11,191 bases of DNA from the UHGV virus genome UHGV-1786984. One strand, 5' to 3'. Position 1 is the stretch's first letter, and every line of letters starts with the position of its first letter. Made by a program: the position numbers and the translations under genes. This document shows positions 1,579-11,191 of this stretch, piece by piece. The notes under the pieces are model-generated. The model ran no database searches. It saw only the letters and a list, made by a program, of their open reading frames with translations, and was not told the origin of the DNA. The stretch comes from a virus.

Positions 1579-1850
1579 GTATTCGTATTGAAATTGGCGA
1601 ACGTTATGTCGTTACCAGTGACAGCTTTCAGTTTATTCTCCACGAGAAAAAGAGAGCGGAAAGCGGTAAAAACGCCGGTCAGGAATGGCTGGCAGTGGTT
1701 GGTTATTACCCGAAATTAAGCCAGCTCGTTTCCGGCCTGATGCATCACGATATTCTGACCGGAAGCGCAAAATCTTTTGCTGATTTAAACGCGCAGGTTG
1801 AGCAACTCAGCAAGCGTTGTTCAGAGGCTTTTGGCTCACATGGACGTTAA
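1575..1850 (+). CDS. Small early-operon hypothetical protein (P2 orf83-like by position), 91 aa
   Basis: ATG at 1575 with GGAGA upstream. Ends TAA 1848-1850, overlapping the proposed gene A start at 1840. Confidence 0.6.
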   Translation: MSIRIEIGERYVVTSDSFQFILHEKKRAESGKNAGQEWLAVVGYYPKLSQLVSGLMHHDILTGSAKSFADLNAQVEQLSKRCSEAFGSHGR

Positions 1851-4122
1851 AGCCTCCGGGCGTTTTGTCCCTCCGTCAGCATTTGCCGCAGGCACCGGTA
1901 AGACGTTTACCGGTGCTTATGCATGGAACGCGCCACGCGAGGCCGTCGGGCGCGAAAGACCCCTTACACGTGACGAGATGCGTCAGGTGCAAGGTGTTTT
2001 ATCCACGATTAATCGCCTGCCTTACTTTTTGCGCTCGCTGTTTACTTCACGCTATGACTACATCCGGCGCAATAAAAGCCCGGTGCACGGGTTTTATTTC
2101 CTCACATCCACTTTTCAGCGTCGTTTATGGCCGCGCATTGAGCGCGTGAATCAGCGCCATGAAATGAACACCGACGCGTCGTTGCTGTTTCTGGCAGAGC
2201 GTGACCATTATGCGCGTCTGCCGGGGATGAATGATAAGGAGCTGAAAAAGTTTGCCGCCCGTATCTCATCGCAGCTTTTCATGATGTATGAGGAACTCTG
2301 CGATGCATGGGTTGATGCGCATGGTGAAAAAGAATCGCTGTTTACGGATGAGGCGCAGGCTCACCTGTATGGTCATGTTGCTGGCGCTGCACGTGCTTTC
2401 AATATTTCCCCGCTTTACTGGAAAAAATACCGTAAAGGACAGATGACCACGAGGCAGGCATATTCTGCCATTGCCCGCCTGTTTAACGATGAGTGGTGGA
2501 CTCATCAGCTTAAAGGTCAGCGTATGCGCTGGCATGAAGCGTTACTGATTGCTGTCGGGGAGGTCAATAAAGACCGTTCTCCTTATGCCAGTAAACATGC
2601 CATTCGTGATGTGCGTGCGCGCCGCCAGGCAAATCTGGAATTTCTTAAATCGTGTGACCTTGAAAACAGGGAAACCGGCGAGCGCATCGACCTTATCAGT
2701 AAGGTGATGGGCAGTATTTCTAATCCAGAAATTCGCCGGATGGAGCTGATGAACACCATTGCCGGTATTGAGCGTTACGCCGCCGCAGAGGGTGATTTGG
2801 GGATGTTTATCACGCTGACCGCGCCGTCAAAGTATCACCCGACACGTCAGGTCGGAAAAGGCGAAAGTAAAACCGTTCAGCTTAATCACGGCTGGAACGA
2901 TGAGGCATTTAATCCAAAGGATGCGCAGCGTTATCTCTGCCGTATCTGGAGTCTGATGCGCACGGCATTCAAGGATAATGATTTACAGGTCTACGGTTTG
3001 CGTGTCGTCGAGCCACACCACGACGGAACGCCGCACTGGCATATGATGCTTTTTTGTAATCCACGCCAGCGTAATCAGATTATCGAAATCATGCGTCGCT
3101 ATGCGCTCAAAGAGGATGGCGACGAAAGAGGAGCCGCGCGAAACCGTTTTCAGGAAAAACACCTTAACCGGGGCGGTGCTGCGGGGTATATCGCGAAATA
3201 CATCTCAAAAAATATCGACGGCTATGCACTGGATGGGCAGCTCGATAACGATACCGGCAGACCGCTGAAAGATACTGCCGCGGCTGTTACCGCATGGGCG
3301 TCAACGTGGCGCATTCCGCAATTTAAAACGGTTGGCCTGCCGACAATGGGGGCTTACCGTGAACTACGCAAATTGCCTCGCGGCGTCAGCATTGCTGATG
3401 AGTTTGACGAGCGCGTCGAGGCTGCACGCGCCGCCGCAGACAGTGGTGATTTTGCGCTGTATATCAGCGCGCAGGGTGGGGCAAATGTCCCGCGCGATTG
3501 CCAGACTGTCAGGGTTGCCCGTAGCCCGTCGGATGACGTTAACGAGTACGAGGAAGAAGTCGAGAGAGTGGTCGGCATTTACGCGCCGCATCTCGGCGCG
3601 CGTCATATTCATATCACCAGAACGACGGACTGGCGCATTGTTCCGAAAGTGCCGGTCGTTGAGCCTTTGACTTTAAAAAGCGGCATCGCCGCGCCTCGGA
3701 GTCCTGTCAATAACTGTGGAAAGCTCACCAGTGGTGATACTTCGTTACCGGCTCCCACACCTTCTGAACACGCCGCAGCAGTGCTTAATCTGGTTGATGA
3801 CGGTGTTATCGAATGGAATGACCCGGAGGTCGTGAGGGCGCTCAGAGGTGCATTAAAACACGGTCGGAGAACGCCAAATCGTCAGCAAAGAAACGGAAGC
3901 TCGTTAAAACCACATGAAATTGCACCATCGGCCAGACTGGCCCGGTCGGAACGAATGCAAATTACCCGTATCCGCGTTGACCTTGCTCAGAACGGTATCA
4001 GGCCGCAGCGATGGGAGCTTGAGGCGCTGGCGCGTGGTGCGACCGTAGATTACAACGGGAAAAAATTTACGTATCCGGTCGCTGATGAGTGGAGTTGGTT
4101 TTATTGTTATTCAGAGCAATAA
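1840..4122 (+). CDS. A: Rolling-circle replication initiator endonuclease, P2 gpA family (HUH superfamily), ~760 aa
   Basis: Long ORF. HUH-type metal-binding motif in PHWHMMLF and a paired-tyrosine catalytic motif in YIAKYISKNIDGY (phiX174 gpA / P2 gpA class). First ATG is at 1840 (the track ORF starts at an upstream TTG at 1798); from 1840 the length is close to the recalled P2 A length. Ends TAA 4120-4122. Confidence 0.9.
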   Translation: MDVKASGRFVPPSAFAAGTGKTFTGAYAWNAPREAVGRERPLTRDEMRQVQGVLSTINRLPYFLRSLFTSRYDYIRRNKSPVHGFYFLTSTFQRRLWPRIERVNQRHEMNTDASLLFLAERDHYARLPGMNDKELKKFAARISSQLFMMYEELCDAWVDAHGEKESLFTDEAQAHLYGHVAGAARAFNISPLYWKKYRKGQMTTRQAYSAIARLFNDEWWTHQLKGQRMRWHEALLIAVGEVNKDRSPYASKHAIRDVRARRQANLEFLKSCDLENRETGERIDLISKVMGSISNPEIRRMELMNTIAGIERYAAAEGDLGMFITLTAPSKYHPTRQVGKGESKTVQLNHGWNDEAFNPKDAQRYLCRIWSLMRTAFKDNDLQVYGLRVVEPHHDGTPHWHMMLFCNPRQRNQIIEIMRRYALKEDGDERGAARNRFQEKHLNRGGAAGYIAKYISKNIDGYALDGQLDNDTGRPLKDTAAAVTAWASTWRIPQFKTVGLPTMGAYRELRKLPRGVSIADEFDERVEAARAAADSGDFALYISAQGGANVPRDCQTVRVARSPSDDVNEYEEEVERVVGIYAPHLGARHIHITRTTDWRIVPKVPVVEPLTLKSGIAAPRSPVNNCGKLTSGDTSLPAPTPSEHAAAVLNLVDDGVIEWNDPEVVRALRGALKHGRRTPNRQQRNGSSLKPHEIAPSARLARSERMQITRIRVDLAQNGIRPQRWELEALARGATVDYNGKKFTYPVADEWSWFYCYSEQ

Positions 4123-4238
4123 ACATCTGATTTAATTTGTTGCATAATAGTAAAATTGCTGTTTATCTACATGTGTTAACTATTGATAATTATGTTGCTA
4201 ATAATGTGTGCAAATTTATACTGAAAAAGGTGAAAACG
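4123..4238 (+). promoter_or_regulatory. AT-rich intergenic region upstream of the cargo module; likely holds its own promoter and RBS (AAGGTG 4227-4232)
   Basis: Abrupt shift to AT-rich sequence right after the gene A stop, with several -35-like and -10-like hexamers (ttgcat near 4140, gataat 4185-4190, tgctaataat 4196-4205). Exact -35/-10 pairing could not be fixed by eye. Confidence 0.35.
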
Positions 4239-5123
4239 ATGAATGATATCTTTGTTCTTACAAGGGAAGAGCTTGAAACACTAGATTATAGTGTTTTTAT
4301 GCATATACCAGTTACATTTCATGCACATAAAATAAAAAAATATCTGGATGGGATTGCTGAATCATCAGGAAACCCCAAAGAGAAAAAATTAGCATCTCTT
4401 TTTGGTATGCTATATAGTTTCAATTTGCAAGTTGTTAACAACACTCCATCATTTGAACCCCAAATGATTTGGGGTAATAAAAGATCAATATTGTCTGAAG
4501 ATTTTGATGAGCAGGTGAATGACTGTCTTTTATATGTTTCTCAAAAAATAACCAATCCATTTTTGTTATCAAGAATATATGATGTTGTTTGGTGTAATAA
4601 CCGGAAAAACAAAGACGTGGCAATTAAAGCAATTGATTCCTATGCTGAAATGCTAAATATAGCAATTGAAAAACTAATAATAAAAAACGAAAGCATGGAT
4701 GAAAGTGATTTAAATTGCTTTATTTTTGCTCGTGATTATATTGCTAGGGCTTTGCACATTAATAAAATGGTCTACCCTAGAAAATCAGAAGGAAACATGG
4801 CGATTAAAAATGCCATTCATTCTCTTTATAGTATTCAAAATGAAAGATTAATCTTTGAAGGTTTCAATAATTTGACTTGGTTTATGGTGCGTGATTTTGA
4901 TGGGTATAATCTGCAGTATGCGGAAAATGCTGAGAAGATGGCTGAGCAGCATAAAGATAAAAAATATTATGATGCTGTAAAATCACTTTATATGACAAGT
5001 GCAGTTATTTATGAAAAAATGGTGAGTATGAACGTGCCAAGAGATGTAAACTGGCATCTGCAAATATTACTATTAAAGTTGCAACAGATCGACCTGATAA
5101 TATGGGTAAGATCTCTTGGTTAA
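4239..5123 (+). CDS. Cargo gene 1: hypothetical protein of unknown function, 294 aa from first ATG; AT-rich, foreign composition
   Basis: First ATG at 4239 with AAGGTG 6 nt upstream; the track ORF starts at an in-frame TTG at 4137. Codon usage is A/T-rich, unlike flanking phage genes. No motif recognised by eye. Overlaps the next ORF by 22 nt. Confidence 0.7.
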   Translation: MNDIFVLTREELETLDYSVFMHIPVTFHAHKIKKYLDGIAESSGNPKEKKLASLFGMLYSFNLQVVNNTPSFEPQMIWGNKRSILSEDFDEQVNDCLLYVSQKITNPFLLSRIYDVVWCNNRKNKDVAIKAIDSYAEMLNIAIEKLIIKNESMDESDLNCFIFARDYIARALHINKMVYPRKSEGNMAIKNAIHSLYSIQNERLIFEGFNNLTWFMVRDFDGYNLQYAENAEKMAEQHKDKKYYDAVKSLYMTSAVIYEKMVSMNVPRDVNWHLQILLLKLQQIDLIIWVRSLG

Positions 5124-6070
5124 GAACAGCTATCTCTGAATTAAGACAGTATGGTGGTGATAGCCAACAGATAGAAGATTTAAAGGAACAACTTGCTAAT
5201 TTGAGAGAAGAAGTAAGGAGTGAATATGTCACTTTAAGCCATTCTATTGATATTAGTGACTTGGTTGCTGAAAGTGAAAAAAAACTGACGGGGCGTTCTT
5301 TGCCCGATATATTCAAAGTTTTAATGCGTGAAACACCGATTGAAAATATTGAAAGCATGAGGGAGCAAGTTTTAAGATTATCAGAAAAAAGTTTATTCTC
5401 TAGTTTTGTTGGAACAGAAATTAATGATGAGAGTGGGCGTAAGGTATATACAATCCCGCCGTTGAATAATAAAAAAGATATGAGTGATGATGTTGTTATT
5501 GATCAATATCTAAGAAATTTCGAGATTACTCATAAGATTTTTGTAAACGGTGTCTTTGAACCTGCTCGCTATGTACTTTCTCAAGAACATGGCTTGACGT
5601 TGTCAACATTCGTTAAATTAGTTACAACTAGTCCAATTGTCAAGCCGGAGTTTAGGGAGATTTTTAATTTGGGCTTTTACAAATTATGGCAGGGAGATTA
5701 CATCAGTGCAGCTTATCTTTTAATACCACAAATGGAAGGTATGGTTCGTTATTATTATGAGCTTAGTGGAAAGGATGCTACTAGATATTTGGATAAGGGA
5801 TTAGAGGAGTCAACAAGTATTTCTCAGCTTCTAGATAAATGCAGAGATGATTTGGAAAGTATCTTTTCTAAGAATCTTGTTTTAACTATCGATGTTCTTT
5901 TTAATAGAAAGAGTGGGGCAACCTTAAGACATAAATTAGCACATGGTAATTTATATACTAATGCTTGTTACGATGAAACAACGACATATGCATGCATCCT
6001 GATTTTCTTTCTGTGTGCTTATCCTCTCCTACCATATTTTGATACTGTATTTGAACAGGGCTCTGTTTGA
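5102..6070 (+). CDS. Cargo gene 2: hypothetical protein with C-terminal HEPN-like R-x4-H motif (candidate RNase/abortive-infection effector), 322 aa
   Basis: ORF from ATG 5102, in the -1 frame relative to cargo gene 1, no obvious SD. C-terminal ..NRKSGATLRHKLAHGNLY.. has Arg (5927-5929) and His (5942-5944) spaced R-x4-H as in HEPN (Abi_2/AbiD/AbiF-like) domains. Same AT-rich composition. May be a separate gene or the 3' part of a frameshifted single gene. Confidence 0.65.
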   Translation: MGKISWLRTAISELRQYGGDSQQIEDLKEQLANLREEVRSEYVTLSHSIDISDLVAESEKKLTGRSLPDIFKVLMRETPIENIESMREQVLRLSEKSLFSSFVGTEINDESGRKVYTIPPLNNKKDMSDDVVIDQYLRNFEITHKIFVNGVFEPARYVLSQEHGLTLSTFVKLVTTSPIVKPEFREIFNLGFYKLWQGDYISAAYLLIPQMEGMVRYYYELSGKDATRYLDKGLEESTSISQLLDKCRDDLESIFSKNLVLTIDVLFNRKSGATLRHKLAHGNLYTNACYDETTTYACILIFFLCAYPLLPYFDTVFEQGSV

Positions 6071-6221
6071 TAACGTATACGTTGAGGCATAAAACCTATG
6101 CATACTTAGCTGCATCAATTTGCACGAGGTATTTCAGTATGCATTTTCTGCGTAATAGTAGGGATTGCTTGGTTTGGTAGTTGTAATTCAACTGCATTCA
6201 AACCGACCCATGAAGCGGGCG

Positions 6222-6240
6222 GGCGAGGCGGGGAAAGCAC
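6222..6240. other. cos site: 19-nt P2-type cohesive-end sequence GGCGAGGCGGGGAAAGCAC (phage genome ends joined)
   Basis: Exact string ggcgaggcggggaaagcac at 6222-6240, matching the recalled P2 cohesive end. Location between the right-end cargo region and portal gene Q is where P2 cos lies. Confidence 0.7.
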
Positions 6241-6419: not shown

Positions 6420-7454
6420 TCAGTCGTTGTCAGTGTCCAGTGAGTAGTTTTTAAAGCGGATGACCTCCTGACCGAGCCAGCCGTTTATCTCGCGGATCCT
6501 GTCCTGTAGCGGGATAAGCTCATTGCGGACAAAGACCTTTGCCACTTTCTCAATATCGCCCAGTGACCCGACGTTCTCCGGCTTGCCACCCATCAACTGA
6601 AAGGGGATGCGGTGTGCGTCCAGCAGGTCAGCGGCGCTGGCTTTTTTGATATTAAAAAAATCGTCCTTCGTCGCCACTTCACTGAGCGGGATAATTTTAA
6701 TGCCGTCGGCTTTCCCCTGCGGGGCATAGAGAAACAGATTTTTAAAGTTATTGCGGCCTTTCGACTTAACCATGTTTTCGCGAAGCATTTCGATATCGTT
6801 GCGATCCTGCACGGCATCGGTGACGTACATGATGTATCCGGCATGTGCGCCATTTTCGTAATACTTGCGGCGGAACAGCGTGGCCGACTCATTCAGCCAG
6901 GCAGAGTTAAGGGCGCTGAGATATTCCGGCAGGCCGTACAGCTCCTGATTAATATCCGGCTCCAGCAGGTGAAACACGGAACCGGGCGTGAAAGGTGTCG
7001 GCTCGTTGAAGGACGGCACCCACCAGTAAACATCCTCTTCCACACCACGGCGGGTATATTTTGCCGGTGAGGTTTCCAGTCTGATGACCTTACCGGTGGT
7101 GCTGTAACGCTTTTCCAGAAACGCATTACCGAACACCAGAAAATCCAGCACAAAGCGGCTGAAATCCTGCTGGGAAAGCCACGGGTGCGGGATAAACGTT
7201 GAAGCCAGAATATTACGTTTGACGTAAATCGGTGAGCTGTGATGCACGGCAGCACGCAGGCTTTTTGCCAGACCGGTAAAGCTGACCGGCGGCTCATACC
7301 ATCTGCCGTTACTGATGCATTCGACGTAATCCAGAATGTCACGGCGGTCGAGTACCGGCACCGGCTCACCAAAGGTGAATGCCTCCATTTTCGGGGCGCT
7401 GGCAGTCATTGTTTTTGCCGCAGGTTGCGGTGTTTTCCCTTTTTTCTTGCTCAT
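6420..7454 (-). CDS. Q: Portal protein, P2 gpQ family, 344 aa
   Basis: 344-aa ORF on - strand (MSKKKGKTPQPAAK...), matching recalled P2 Q length and its position next to cos. Start ATG (7452-7454) overlaps the P stop by 1 nt (TGATG). Confidence 0.9.
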   Translation of the reverse strand: MSKKKGKTPQPAAKTMTASAPKMEAFTFGEPVPVLDRRDILDYVECISNGRWYEPPVSFTGLAKSLRAAVHHSSPIYVKRNILASTFIPHPWLSQQDFSRFVLDFLVFGNAFLEKRYSTTGKVIRLETSPAKYTRRGVEEDVYWWVPSFNEPTPFTPGSVFHLLEPDINQELYGLPEYLSALNSAWLNESATLFRRKYYENGAHAGYIMYVTDAVQDRNDIEMLRENMVKSKGRNNFKNLFLYAPQGKADGIKIIPLSEVATKDDFFNIKKASAADLLDAHRIPFQLMGGKPENVGSLGDIEKVAKVFVRNELIPLQDRIREINGWLGQEVIRFKNYSLDTDND

Positions 7455-9226
7455 CAGTAAAACTCCAGAATGGTGGATGTCAGCGGGGTGCTGATACCTG
7501 CGGTGAGTGGCTCATTTAACAGGGCGTGCATGGTCGCCCAGGCGAGGTCGGCGTGGCTGGCTTCCTCGCTGCGGCTGGCCTCATAGGTGGCGCTGCGTCC
7601 GCTGCTGGTCATGGTCTTGCGGATAGCCATAAACGAGCTGGTGATGTCGGTGGCGCTGACGTCATATTCCAGACAGCCACGGCGGATAACGTCTTTGGCC
7701 TTGAGCACCATTGCGGTTTTCATTTCCGGCGTGTAGCGGATGTCGCGCGCGGCGGGATAGAACGAGCGCACGAGCTGGAACACGCCGACACCGAGGCCGG
7801 TGGCATCAATACCGATGTATTCGACGTTGTATTTTTCGGTGAGTTTGCGGATGGATTCCGCCTGAGTGGCAAAGTCCATGCCTTTCCACTGGTGACGCTC
7901 AAGTATTCTGAATTTGCCACCGGCCACCACCGGCGGTGCCAGCACCACGCATCCGGCGCTGTCGCCACGGTGTGACGGGTCGTAACCAATCCATACCGGG
8001 CGGGAGCCGAACGGATTCGCGGCAAACGGCGCATAGTCTTCCCATTCTTCCAGCGTGTCGACCATGCAGCGTTGCAGCTCCTCGAACGGGAACACCGACG
8101 CCTTGTCGTCAACAAATTCACACATGAACAGGTTTTTAAAATCGTCGGCGCTGTTTTCACGTTTGAGCTGCTCAATGTCGAACAGCGTGCAGCCGCCTTT
8201 CAGGGCGTCCTCAATGGTGACAATCTGCCGCCACTGGCCGTCCGCACAGAGAAGCCCGCTGGCAAGGGCGTTATGACTGACGTCGATTTCCACACGTTCG
8301 GCGGCGCTGGCGCGTCCCCGGTTGAACAGTTCACCCGACCAGAACGGGTAGGCGTCGTGCGCCAGCGTGGACGGGGTGGAGAAATAGGTCGAGCGCAGGT
8401 GACTCTGTGAGGCCATACCTGATGCCACCTTACGCAGTACCTGAAAATTCGGGATCCAGAAAATCTCGTCGACGTACAGGTCGCCGTTATGGCTCTGTGC
8501 GGTGTTGGAGTTGGTGCCGAGAAAAATCAGTTTTGCGCCGTTATTGCCCAGGACAATCGGGTCACCGGTCAGGTCAACGTCAACCAGCCGGGCAAAGGCG
8601 ATGATGTATTCGCGGAACACATACGCCTGCGTTTTACTGGCCGACAGAAAAATCTGGTTATGACCGGTTTTCAGGGCGCGCAGCAGCGCCTCGCGGGAAA
8701 AATAAAACGTCGCGCCAATCTGGCGGGATTTCAGGATATCGCGGATGCGGTGCTCAAGCCCGGCGCGATACCAGTGCAACTGATATTCGAAAGACTGCTC
8801 AAAGAAAATCTGCTCCAGCTTTTCGATGGCCTCGTCACTGAAAAAATTCTTTTTCGGTTTGCGACGCCCGCCTTTGTTGCGGTTAGCGACGTTCGGATTA
8901 AGGTCTGCCTCGTTGCCGGTCTGACTGTAGCGGTTTACCCGTGCCAGTCGTTCAATCTGGCGTCCGAGCAGGTCAATTTCCTTGAAGTCACCGCCGGTTT
9001 TCTGCGGTTTGATGATGAGCTGGGTCAGCCGCGCTTCCAGGCTCATTTCGACACGGCTGATGGGGGCAACGCTGTCCCAGCCGTCGCGCTGTTTCCAGCT
9101 CTGCACCGTCGGGCGTTTCATCTGCAACATGGCGGCAATCTGCGGCACGGAAAATCCCTGCCAGTACAGCAGCGCCGCCTGACGACGCGGGTCGTGTAAA
9201 AGAGTGGTGTCTGTGGTGATGGTCAT
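7454..9226 (-). CDS. P: Terminase ATPase (large) subunit, P2 gpP family, 590 aa from ATG at 9224-9226
   Basis: Long - strand ORF upstream of Q. First ATG gives MTITTDTTLLHDPRRQ... with GAGG-containing SD upstream; the track ORF extends 10 codons further to a non-ATG start. Length fits recalled P2 gpP. Confidence 0.9.
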   Translation of the reverse strand: MTITTDTTLLHDPRRQAALLYWQGFSVPQIAAMLQMKRPTVQSWKQRDGWDSVAPISRVEMSLEARLTQLIIKPQKTGGDFKEIDLLGRQIERLARVNRYSQTGNEADLNPNVANRNKGGRRKPKKNFFSDEAIEKLEQIFFEQSFEYQLHWYRAGLEHRIRDILKSRQIGATFYFSREALLRALKTGHNQIFLSASKTQAYVFREYIIAFARLVDVDLTGDPIVLGNNGAKLIFLGTNSNTAQSHNGDLYVDEIFWIPNFQVLRKVASGMASQSHLRSTYFSTPSTLAHDAYPFWSGELFNRGRASAAERVEIDVSHNALASGLLCADGQWRQIVTIEDALKGGCTLFDIEQLKRENSADDFKNLFMCEFVDDKASVFPFEELQRCMVDTLEEWEDYAPFAANPFGSRPVWIGYDPSHRGDSAGCVVLAPPVVAGGKFRILERHQWKGMDFATQAESIRKLTEKYNVEYIGIDATGLGVGVFQLVRSFYPAARDIRYTPEMKTAMVLKAKDVIRRGCLEYDVSATDITSSFMAIRKTMTSSGRSATYEASRSEEASHADLAWATMHALLNEPLTAGISTPLTSTILEFY

Positions 9227-9399
9227 GAATACCTCGCCGTGATGAATACACGGCAAGGCTACTGAGTCGCGCCCCGCGATTCGCTAAGGTGCTGTTGTGT
9301 CAGTGATAAGCCATCCGGGACTGATGGCGGAGGATGCGCATCGTCGGGAAACTGATGCCGACATGTGACTCCTCTAATCACTATTCAGGACTCCTGACA
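9227..9399. promoter_or_regulatory. Divergent intergenic region between P (-) and O (+); expected site of the two late promoters (activator-dependent in P2)
   Basis: 173-bp gap between divergent late operons, as in P2. An exact TGT-N12-ACA activator dyad was searched by eye and not found, so element positions are unresolved. Confidence 0.4.
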
Positions 9400-10207: not shown

Positions 10208-11191
10208 ATGCGCCAGGAAACCCGCTTTAAATTTAATGCCTACCTGTCCCGTGTTGCCGAGCTGAACGGCATCGACGCCGGTGATGTGTCGAAAAAATTC
10301 ACCGTTGAACCGTCGGTCACCCAGACCCTGATGAACACCATGCAGGAGTCCTCTGACTTTCTGACCCGCATCAACATTGTGCCGGTCAGCGAAATGAAAG
10401 GGGAAAAAATTGGTATCGGTGTCACCGGCTCCATCGCCAGCACCACCGACACCGCCGGTGGCACCGAGCGTCAGCCGAAGGACTTCTCGAAGCTGGCGTC
10501 CAGTAAGTACGAATGCGACCAGATTAACTTCGATTTTTATATCCGCTACAAAACGCTTGACCTGTGGGCGCGTTATCAGGATTTCGAATGCGACCAGATT
10601 AACTTCGATTTTTATATCCGCTACAAAACGCTGGACCTGTGGGCGCGTTATCAGGATTTCCAGCTCCGTGTCCGTAACGCCATTATCAAACGCCAGTCCC
10701 TTGATTTAATCATGGCCGGTTTTAACGGCGTGAAGCGTGCCGAAACCTCTGACCGCAGCAGCAATCCGATGCTGCAGGATGTGGCGGTCGGCTGGCTGCA
10801 GAAATACCGCAATGAAGCCCCGGCGCGCGTGATGAGCAAGGTCACTGACGAGGAAGGCCGCACCACCTCTGAGGTTATCCGCGTGGGTAAGGGCGGTGAT
10901 TATGCCAGCCTTGATGCACTGGTGATGGATGCGACCAACAACCTGATTGAACCGTGGTATCAGGAAGACCCTGACCTTGTGGTGATTGTGGGGCGTCAGT
11001 TACTGGCGGACAAGTATTTCCCCATCGTCAACAAGGAGCAGGACAACAGCGAGATGCTGGCCGCTGACGTCATCATCAGCCAGAAACGCATCGGCAACCT
11101 GCCAGCGGTACGCGTCCCGTACTTCCCGGCGGATGCGATGCTCATCACGAAGCTGGAAAACCTGTCCATCTACTACATGGATGACAGCCAT
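10208..11191 (+). CDS. N: Major capsid protein, P2 gpN family; 5' partial (328 codons, runs off the window end)
   Basis: ATG 10208 with CAGGA upstream; frame open to the last base of the window (MRQETRFKFNAYLSRVAELNG...YYMDDSH). Absent from the ORF track because no stop lies in the window. Follows O as in P2. Confidence 0.85.
   Translation, partial: MRQETRFKFNAYLSRVAELNGIDAGDVSKKFTVEPSVTQTLMNTMQESSDFLTRINIVPVSEMKGEKIGIGVTGSIASTTDTAGGTERQPKDFSKLASSKYECDQINFDFYIRYKTLDLWARYQDFECDQINFDFYIRYKTLDLWARYQDFQLRVRNAIIKRQSLDLIMAGFNGVKRAETSDRSSNPMLQDVAVGWLQKYRNEAPARVMSKVTDEEGRTTSEVIRVGKGGDYASLDALVMDATNNLIEPWYQEDPDLVVIVGRQLLADKYFPIVNKEQDNSEMLAADVIISQKRIGNLPAVRVPYFPADAMLITKLENLSIYYMDDSH
10511..10660 (+). 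repeat. In-frame 75-bp tandem duplication inside gene N (2 copies, 1 synonymous mismatch), duplicating ECDQINFDFYIRYKTLDLWARYQDF
   Basis: Read directly: gaatgcgaccagattaacttcgatttttatatccgctacaaaacgct[t/g]gacctgtgggcgcgttatcaggatttc occurs twice head-to-tail (10511-10585, 10586-10660). 75 = 25 codons, in frame with N. Confidence 0.9.

Follow-up and report, generated by a model that had tools for sequence, protein, structure and literature searches.

A conserved Rx4H motif and predicted HEPN domain in a frameshifted, single-gene phage defence candidate of a P2-like Escherichia coli prophage

The window, which is the whole stretch of 11,191 nucleotides analysed here from virus genome UHGV-1786984, is the junction between the early and late genes of a P2-like (Peduovirus) Escherichia coli prophage. 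On the left side, genes for B, DUF2732, TraR-like and DUF5405 proteins precede the gene for the replication endonuclease gpA, and on the right side gpP is followed by the gpO scaffold gene and the start of gpN. The gpA–gpQ slot, which in phage P2 holds old and tin, here contains cargo with a GC content of 31–34%, compared with 48–58% in the flanks. The features of the region are as follows.

1798–4122, plus strand: P2 gpA replication endonuclease, left border of the P2 defence hotspot (S88 annotation; Phage_GPA in related loci).
4239–5123, plus strand: 5′ fragment of the disrupted cargo gene (Pfam DUF7380, E = 3e-39; PDC-S39 match; comparison with S88).
5014–5019, plus strand: A6 homopolymer, A7 in intact alleles, a one-base deletion that splits the gene (alignment to E. 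coli S88).
5102–6070, plus strand: 'cargo ORF2', which covers the remaining helical repeats, a beta-hairpin linker and the HEPN domain (PDC-S39, PHROG 5183, S88 and phage ORFs).
5591–6067, plus strand: HEPN domain (Pfam DUF4209/C6orf70 family), residues 452–610 of the intact protein.
5735–5749, plus strand: E-x3-R motif EGMVR (E500 and R504 of the intact protein) in predicted HEPN helix 2 (alignment of 135 relatives).
5927–5944, plus strand: Rx4H motif R-H-K-L-A-H, R564/H569 of the intact protein (alignment; secondary structure prediction).
6420–7454, minus strand: P2 gpQ portal protein, right border of the hotspot (S88 annotation; Phage_portal in related loci).
7454–9256, minus strand: gpP terminase.

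Between the cargo gene and gpQ, positions 6222–6240 read GGCGAGGCGGGGAAAGCAC, which we take to be the exact P2/P4 cohesive-end (cos) sequence. The same 19-mer, for which no occurrence is expected by chance, is found in the P4 sequence given in Table S2A of Rousset et al. (2022, PMC9122126). These authors described the gpA–gpQ slot as a hotspot of anti-phage systems, and the location of the cargo gene matches that of the systems they reported. Homologues with 53–54% identity, from Kosakonia and from a metagenome, occupy the same slot in P2/186-like prophages.

Elsewhere in the window, a 127-bp tandem duplication (133–385; two copies, 96% matches) lies over the start of phage gene B (repB) and is absent from the 98.8%-identical prophage of E. 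coli S88; its second copy leaves B (264–764) intact and its first copy gives rise to a spurious 77-aa ORF (131–364). The major capsid gene N carries a 75-bp in-frame tandem duplication (10510–10660; two copies, 98% matches), also absent from S88, which would add 25 residues to the capsid protein; the prophage may be in decay, or the duplication may be an artefact of assembly. Compared with S88, the window lacks 105 bp (positions 10527–10631 of the S88 locus, L001) where the gpO scaffold gene ends at its 3′ side (around 10134/10135), and gpO has 271 aa in the window versus 284 aa in S88.

The earlier note had described an R-x4-H motif at the C-terminus of cargo ORF2 as if this were a gene of its own. 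The motif is real, but the independent ORF is not: ORF2 represents residues 289–610 of a single 610-aa protein, and the motif lies in the C-terminal domain encoded by a frameshifted gene. A megablast search with window positions 4100–6200 recovered the locus from the Escherichia phage vB_EcoM-569R9 (Peduovirus) and, among 5426 complete E. coli genomes, from 55. In E. coli S88, which is 99.9% identical in the region, it consists of a single 1833-nt coding sequence for a 610-aa 'DUF7380 domain-containing protein' (WP_000997854.1), and the orthologue in vB_EcoM-569R9 is likewise one continuous ORF, labelled in GenBank as a 'DUF4209 domain-containing protein'. Within the gene region the window differs from S88 at two sites only, with T4494 in place of C (P86S) and A6 in place of A7. 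The longer tract is present in every one of the 55 complete genomes that carry the locus (a 117-bp match to a 116-bp query). The deletion from A7 to A6 shifts the frame after residue 260, splits the gene and parts residues 1–260 from residues 289–610: the 5′ fragment encodes residues 1–260 in frame, which comprise the DUF7380 domain and the beginning of the helical repeats, and then continues for 34 codons in the wrong frame up to a TAA stop at 5121–5123, and the first ATG of the downstream frame, at 5102, is Met289 of the intact protein. The two halves match consecutive parts of the PADLOC PDC-S39 models (about 600 positions long), namely positions 8–252 (in a model of 615 positions; E = 4.5e-19) and about 278–599 (278–583 in a model of 595 positions; E = 2.5e-59). 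The halves likewise fall on successive stretches of PHROG 5183, where ORF2 matches positions 291–612. Since the frameshift makes ORF2 no more than the 3′ half of the gene, the motif is properly numbered R564/H569.

In the intact protein, a DUF7380 domain at the N-terminus is followed by a TPR-like helical-repeat region and, at the C-terminus, by the HEPN domain. A profile built from 20 close homologues retrieved about 3358 cluster representatives at E ≤ 1e-3 and 614 at E ≤ 1e-30, and nearly all of the best 150 of these roughly 3358 representatives are 600–640 aa long and match from end to end. In the DUF7380 domain (window 4239–4900) several polar residues are near-invariant (R82, D88, R112, D115, W118, Y135 and R170), a conservation pattern that suggests a possible binding pocket or second active site.

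The A6 allele is not confined to the window. Proteins of 322 aa and 328 aa that match the products of the split allele exactly were found in the protein collection; they are encoded on two metagenome contigs from ENA that both carry A6. One of these is identical to the window along its full 2175 nt (window 3928–6102), and the other shows no differences over window positions 4137–6070 and diverges only in the flanking gpA and downstream DNA. An identical A6 cargo allele in two independent metagenome assemblies indicates one inherited frameshift rather than independent read errors; a sequencing error was for this reason judged the less likely cause of A6, although a homopolymer artefact could still account for it. 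Programmed frameshifting or transcriptional slippage at A6 was considered and rejected as the principal reading, as the tract is short, has no canonical X XXY YYZ arrangement and is A7 in all the complete genomes. The window allele has Ser at position 86 of the DUF7380 domain, where 109 of 135 relatives have Pro; this substitution is compatible with relaxed constraint and, taken with the frameshift, hints at relaxed selection on the window allele.

It could be argued that the split is itself functional, with A6 encoding a two-piece system of a sensor half and a free HEPN half, or acting as an A-tract phase-variable on/off switch. That the window shares an identical cargo allele with the two independent metagenome contigs, one of which has other flanking DNA, would fit such a system, as would the overlap of the ORF2 ATG with the ORF1 stop, since in one version of this explanation the 22-nt overlap (5102–5123) would couple translation of the halves. 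We nevertheless consider it very unlikely, as no obvious ribosome-binding site precedes 5102, residues 261–288 are lost from the middle of the helical repeat, and one allele shared by these sequences is better explained by a single mutation than by frequent switching. The uniform A7 of complete E. coli genomes, the single-ORF state of nearly all of the best 150 representatives, the additional P86S change at a position where Pro prevails, and 80 distant loci in which the gene is always one intact ORF speak against it in the same way. The A6 copy in the window is therefore most likely an inactive pseudogene allele from which no functional protein would be made. Truncated or differently annotated versions of the gene also occur in complete genomes of E. 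coli, Shigella and Salmonella, with products of 256 and 349 aa and, in Shigella, fragments of 76–92 aa, and independent decay of the gene seems to be recurrent across these genomes.

The codons of the motif lie where the earlier note had placed them, with AGA (Arg) at 5927–5929 and CAT (His) at 5942–5944, corresponding to residues 276 and 281 counted from the ATG at 5102 in the peptide context NRKSGATLRHKLAHGNLYTNA. The caution that so short a motif may arise by chance was justified: at least one Rx4-6H occurs in 56% of composition-preserving shuffles of ORF2 and at least one Rx4H in 24%, and ORF2 itself contains three Rx4-6H matches, at R138, R156 and R276. The bare pattern is thus not significant, and only homology, conservation and fold can carry the case for a HEPN domain. 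Conservation was assessed in an alignment of 135 full-length relatives with about 20–27% identity to the query, except for three closer sequences at 32–63%. Just three columns are invariant, namely E500, R564 and H569 (E212, R276 and H281 of ORF2), and R564 and H569 are also invariant in a set of 141 sequences, so that the conservation of the motif residues, which had been proposed as a check, is borne out in distant homologues. Residue 565, directly after the Arg, is polar (His in 105 relatives, Asn in 27, Asp in 2, and Ser in 1); R504, four residues past E500, is Arg in 134/135 (EGMVR or ENSLR); A568 is Ala in 119/135 and G570 is Gly in 130/135. The resulting family signature is P-Q-[LM]-E-x-x-[LV]-R ... 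G-P-x-L-R-[HN]-x-x-A-H-G. A second HEPN motif at R138/H144 or R156/H163 of ORF2 was rejected, both pairs being variable among the 135 relatives, whereas the R276/H281 motif stands above the chance level because it is conserved in distant relatives.

Structure prediction, the other check that had been suggested, returned a HEPN fold with its four-helix core. The predicted domain is an up-down bundle of four helices, interrupted by an insert between helices 2 and 3, and is structurally similar to solved HEPN domains, including those of Csm6 (6tug, 7.2; also 5yjc, 8jbc and 4rgp), TTHA0636 (1wwp, 7.1), HI0074 (1jog), HEPN toxins (7ae2, 8xdj and 5yep), AbiA (8oz7), YutE (1ylm), LsoA (5hy3), RnlA (6y2r and 7aex) and Roquin, with Las1, Csx1, MtlR and the sacsin HEPN domain at lower ranks. 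In the predicted topology the second core helix carries the Glu, helix 3 is preceded by an insert of a beta-hairpin and two short helices, and the Rx4H motif is placed at the distorted end of helix 3 and is followed by a long helix 4, in agreement with the published description of HEPN domains (Anantharaman et al. 2013, PMC3710099). The diagnostic features listed there are an Rx4-6H motif whose Arg is followed by a polar residue (N, D or H) and an upstream acidic residue in E-x3-[KR]; the domain studied here has Rx4H with a polar residue after the Arg and E-x3-R on helix 2, ahead of the insert. We infer that E, R and H may lie close together in space and that the domains may dimerise. Motif conservation and predicted fold thus support the reading of Rx4H as a HEPN signature.

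That the motif is a coincidence in a helical protein unrelated to HEPN is extremely improbable: the frequency of the pattern in shuffled sequences, and its threefold occurrence in ORF2, would be compatible with this, but the invariance of one Arg–His pair while the other two vary, the predicted fold and the probable membership of the DUF4209 family are not expected of a coincidence. The DUF4209 family was classed in 2013 as the C6orf70 HEPN family, in which Rx4-6H is conserved and which is found in operons related to restriction-modification (PMC3710099). The window protein scores 21.2–21.8 bits against Pfam DUF4209 (PF13910; E = 2e-4 to 3e-4) just short of the gathering threshold of 22.3, and 59 of 68 relatives match this model at E ≤ 0.01 (best E = 9e-13), with DUF7380 matched by 68/68. 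When ten HEPN-domain sequences of the family were compared with Pfam at a permissive cut-off, DUF4209 was the sole match, with none to other HEPN models. Abi_2, which the earlier note had named together with AbiD and AbiF, was not matched at E ≤ 1 by ORF2 or at E ≤ 10 by the ten HEPN-domain sequences, so that AbiD and AbiF are analogues and not members of the same family. On these profile matches the family appears to be C6orf70/DUF4209 and not Abi_2/AbiD/AbiF. Searching PDB sequences with a profile yielded no significant match, NCBIfam gave no match, and the PHROGs matched were only families without an assigned function.

The genomic surroundings of the family were examined in 80 distant loci from Pseudomonas, Sphingomonas, Rhizobiales, Rhodobacterales, Acidobacteria and others, gathered with a subset of distant relatives as the query; a pattern scan of species-representative genomes with the close-relative alignment gave chance matches only. 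There is no conserved partner gene in the 80 loci, and no neighbouring family occurs in more than four of them, those four being closely related. Immediate neighbours include HTH regulators, integrases or resolvases and IS66 TnpB, as well as components of type I, III and IV restriction systems, IetA, PbeA and other PDC candidates. This setting fits a mobile single-gene module of variable islands.

A HEPN fold need not be catalytic, and the domain could instead be a nucleotide- or RNA-binding or regulatory module with a non-defence role in the prophage, comparable to MtlR or to HEPN domains paired with nucleotidyltransferases, as might be argued from the S88 allele, for which no defence phenotype is reported. 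HEPN lineages of this kind have typically lost all or part of Rx4-6H (PMC3710099), however, while in this family R, H and the helix-2 Glu are the sole invariant residues, a pattern expected of an active site, and the family is found in variable, mobile, defence-type contexts. A non-catalytic module is accordingly an unlikely reading. We favour, with a probability of roughly 0.8, the interpretation that Rx4H is the predicted catalytic signature of a DUF4209/C6orf70 HEPN domain in a single-gene PDC-S39 cargo, of which the window holds a frameshifted and likely inactive copy.

The HEPN assignment itself was already known from annotation and literature, and in this respect our analysis adds nothing new. 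By its model matches the gene belongs to PDC-S39, a single-gene phage defence candidate of PADLOC; PDC systems are by definition candidates that were found inside loci of BREX, DISARM or type I RM (bioRxiv 10.1101/2024.01.29.577857). Rousset et al. (2022, PMC9122126) listed 'DUF4209' as P2-hotspot system number 13, with 193 occurrences, and cloned the S88 locus as pFR103 ('Putative HEPN'), which appears in Table S2B ('additional tested systems') and not in Table S2A ('validated'). From this placement, pFR103 presumably gave no reproducible protection against their panel of eight coliphages. The window holds the same gene, the first 399 nt of the pFR103 insert being identical to window 4039–4437, but as an allele with the A7-to-A6 frameshift and P86S, in contrast to the intact reference alleles of pFR103 and PDC-S39. 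A full-text search of the literature found no biochemical or phenotypic characterisation for DUF4209, for DUF7380 or for ERMARD in connection with HEPN.

Among the closest known systems is the C6orf70 (ERMARD)/DUF4209 family, whose PF13910 model spans helix 2 and the Rx4H motif and extends into helix 4. The conserved Rx4H, the polar residue after R and the upstream E-x3-R are shared, as is the fusion of the HEPN domain to TPR-like repeats, whereas the bacterial proteins have an N-terminal DUF7380 domain and in the bacterial model, in which all parts look soluble, have no membrane anchor, one being predicted for the eukaryotic protein. The HEPN RNases of known defence systems (ApeA, the C-terminal HEPN domain of AbiA, RnlA/LsoA, HEPN-MNT toxins and Csm6) likewise have the four-helix core, in which Rx4-6H closes helix 3, and a similar logic of a sensor or regulator joined to a HEPN effector. 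There is no relationship at the sequence level (Pfam Abi_2, HEPN_Apea and other HEPN models are unmatched), the N-terminal architecture differs in consisting here of DUF7380 and a helical repeat, and an antitoxin or partner gene is absent beside the family members in the 80 loci.

Starting from the features established computationally (single-gene architecture, HEPN fold, invariant E/R/H, P2-hotspot location and frameshift), and by analogy with the HEPN biology of RNase L/Ire1, PrrC/RloC, Csm6, RnlA and HEPN toxins (summarised in PMC3710099), a most likely mechanism can be proposed for the intact protein. The DUF7380 and repeat regions would hold the HEPN domain inactive until a cue of infection is sensed; this auto-inhibitory or sensor role is pure inference. 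Pairing of two HEPN domains would next create a composite, metal-independent RNase site out of E500, R564, H565 and H569; as each chain has only one HEPN domain, pairing between chains would probably be needed. Host and/or phage RNA would be cleaved and infection aborted; both metal-independent cleavage by the Rx4H site and abortive infection as its outcome are suggested by the analogous systems.

It is also conceivable, though quite unlikely, that either the A6 split allele, present in at least three sequences, is a functional two-piece or phase-switchable system, or the large DUF7380-repeat-HEPN family, whose members are related to eukaryotic ERMARD, uses a novel sensing or target mechanism. 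If this were true, a sensing or target mechanism unlike those of known HEPN defences could account for the presumed blank result with a standard phage panel.

Under the preferred reading, of a predicted catalytic HEPN domain in a single-gene cargo, a guess made from the motif alone proved right and the gene model has been corrected. Since the two cargo ORFs belong to one frameshifted gene, any mutagenesis is best done on the intact A7 allele, with the R564/H569 numbering. The DUF7380-repeat-HEPN family is widespread: about 1% of complete E. coli genomes carry it, and its representatives among Proteobacteria number in the thousands. It stays a candidate for phage defence.
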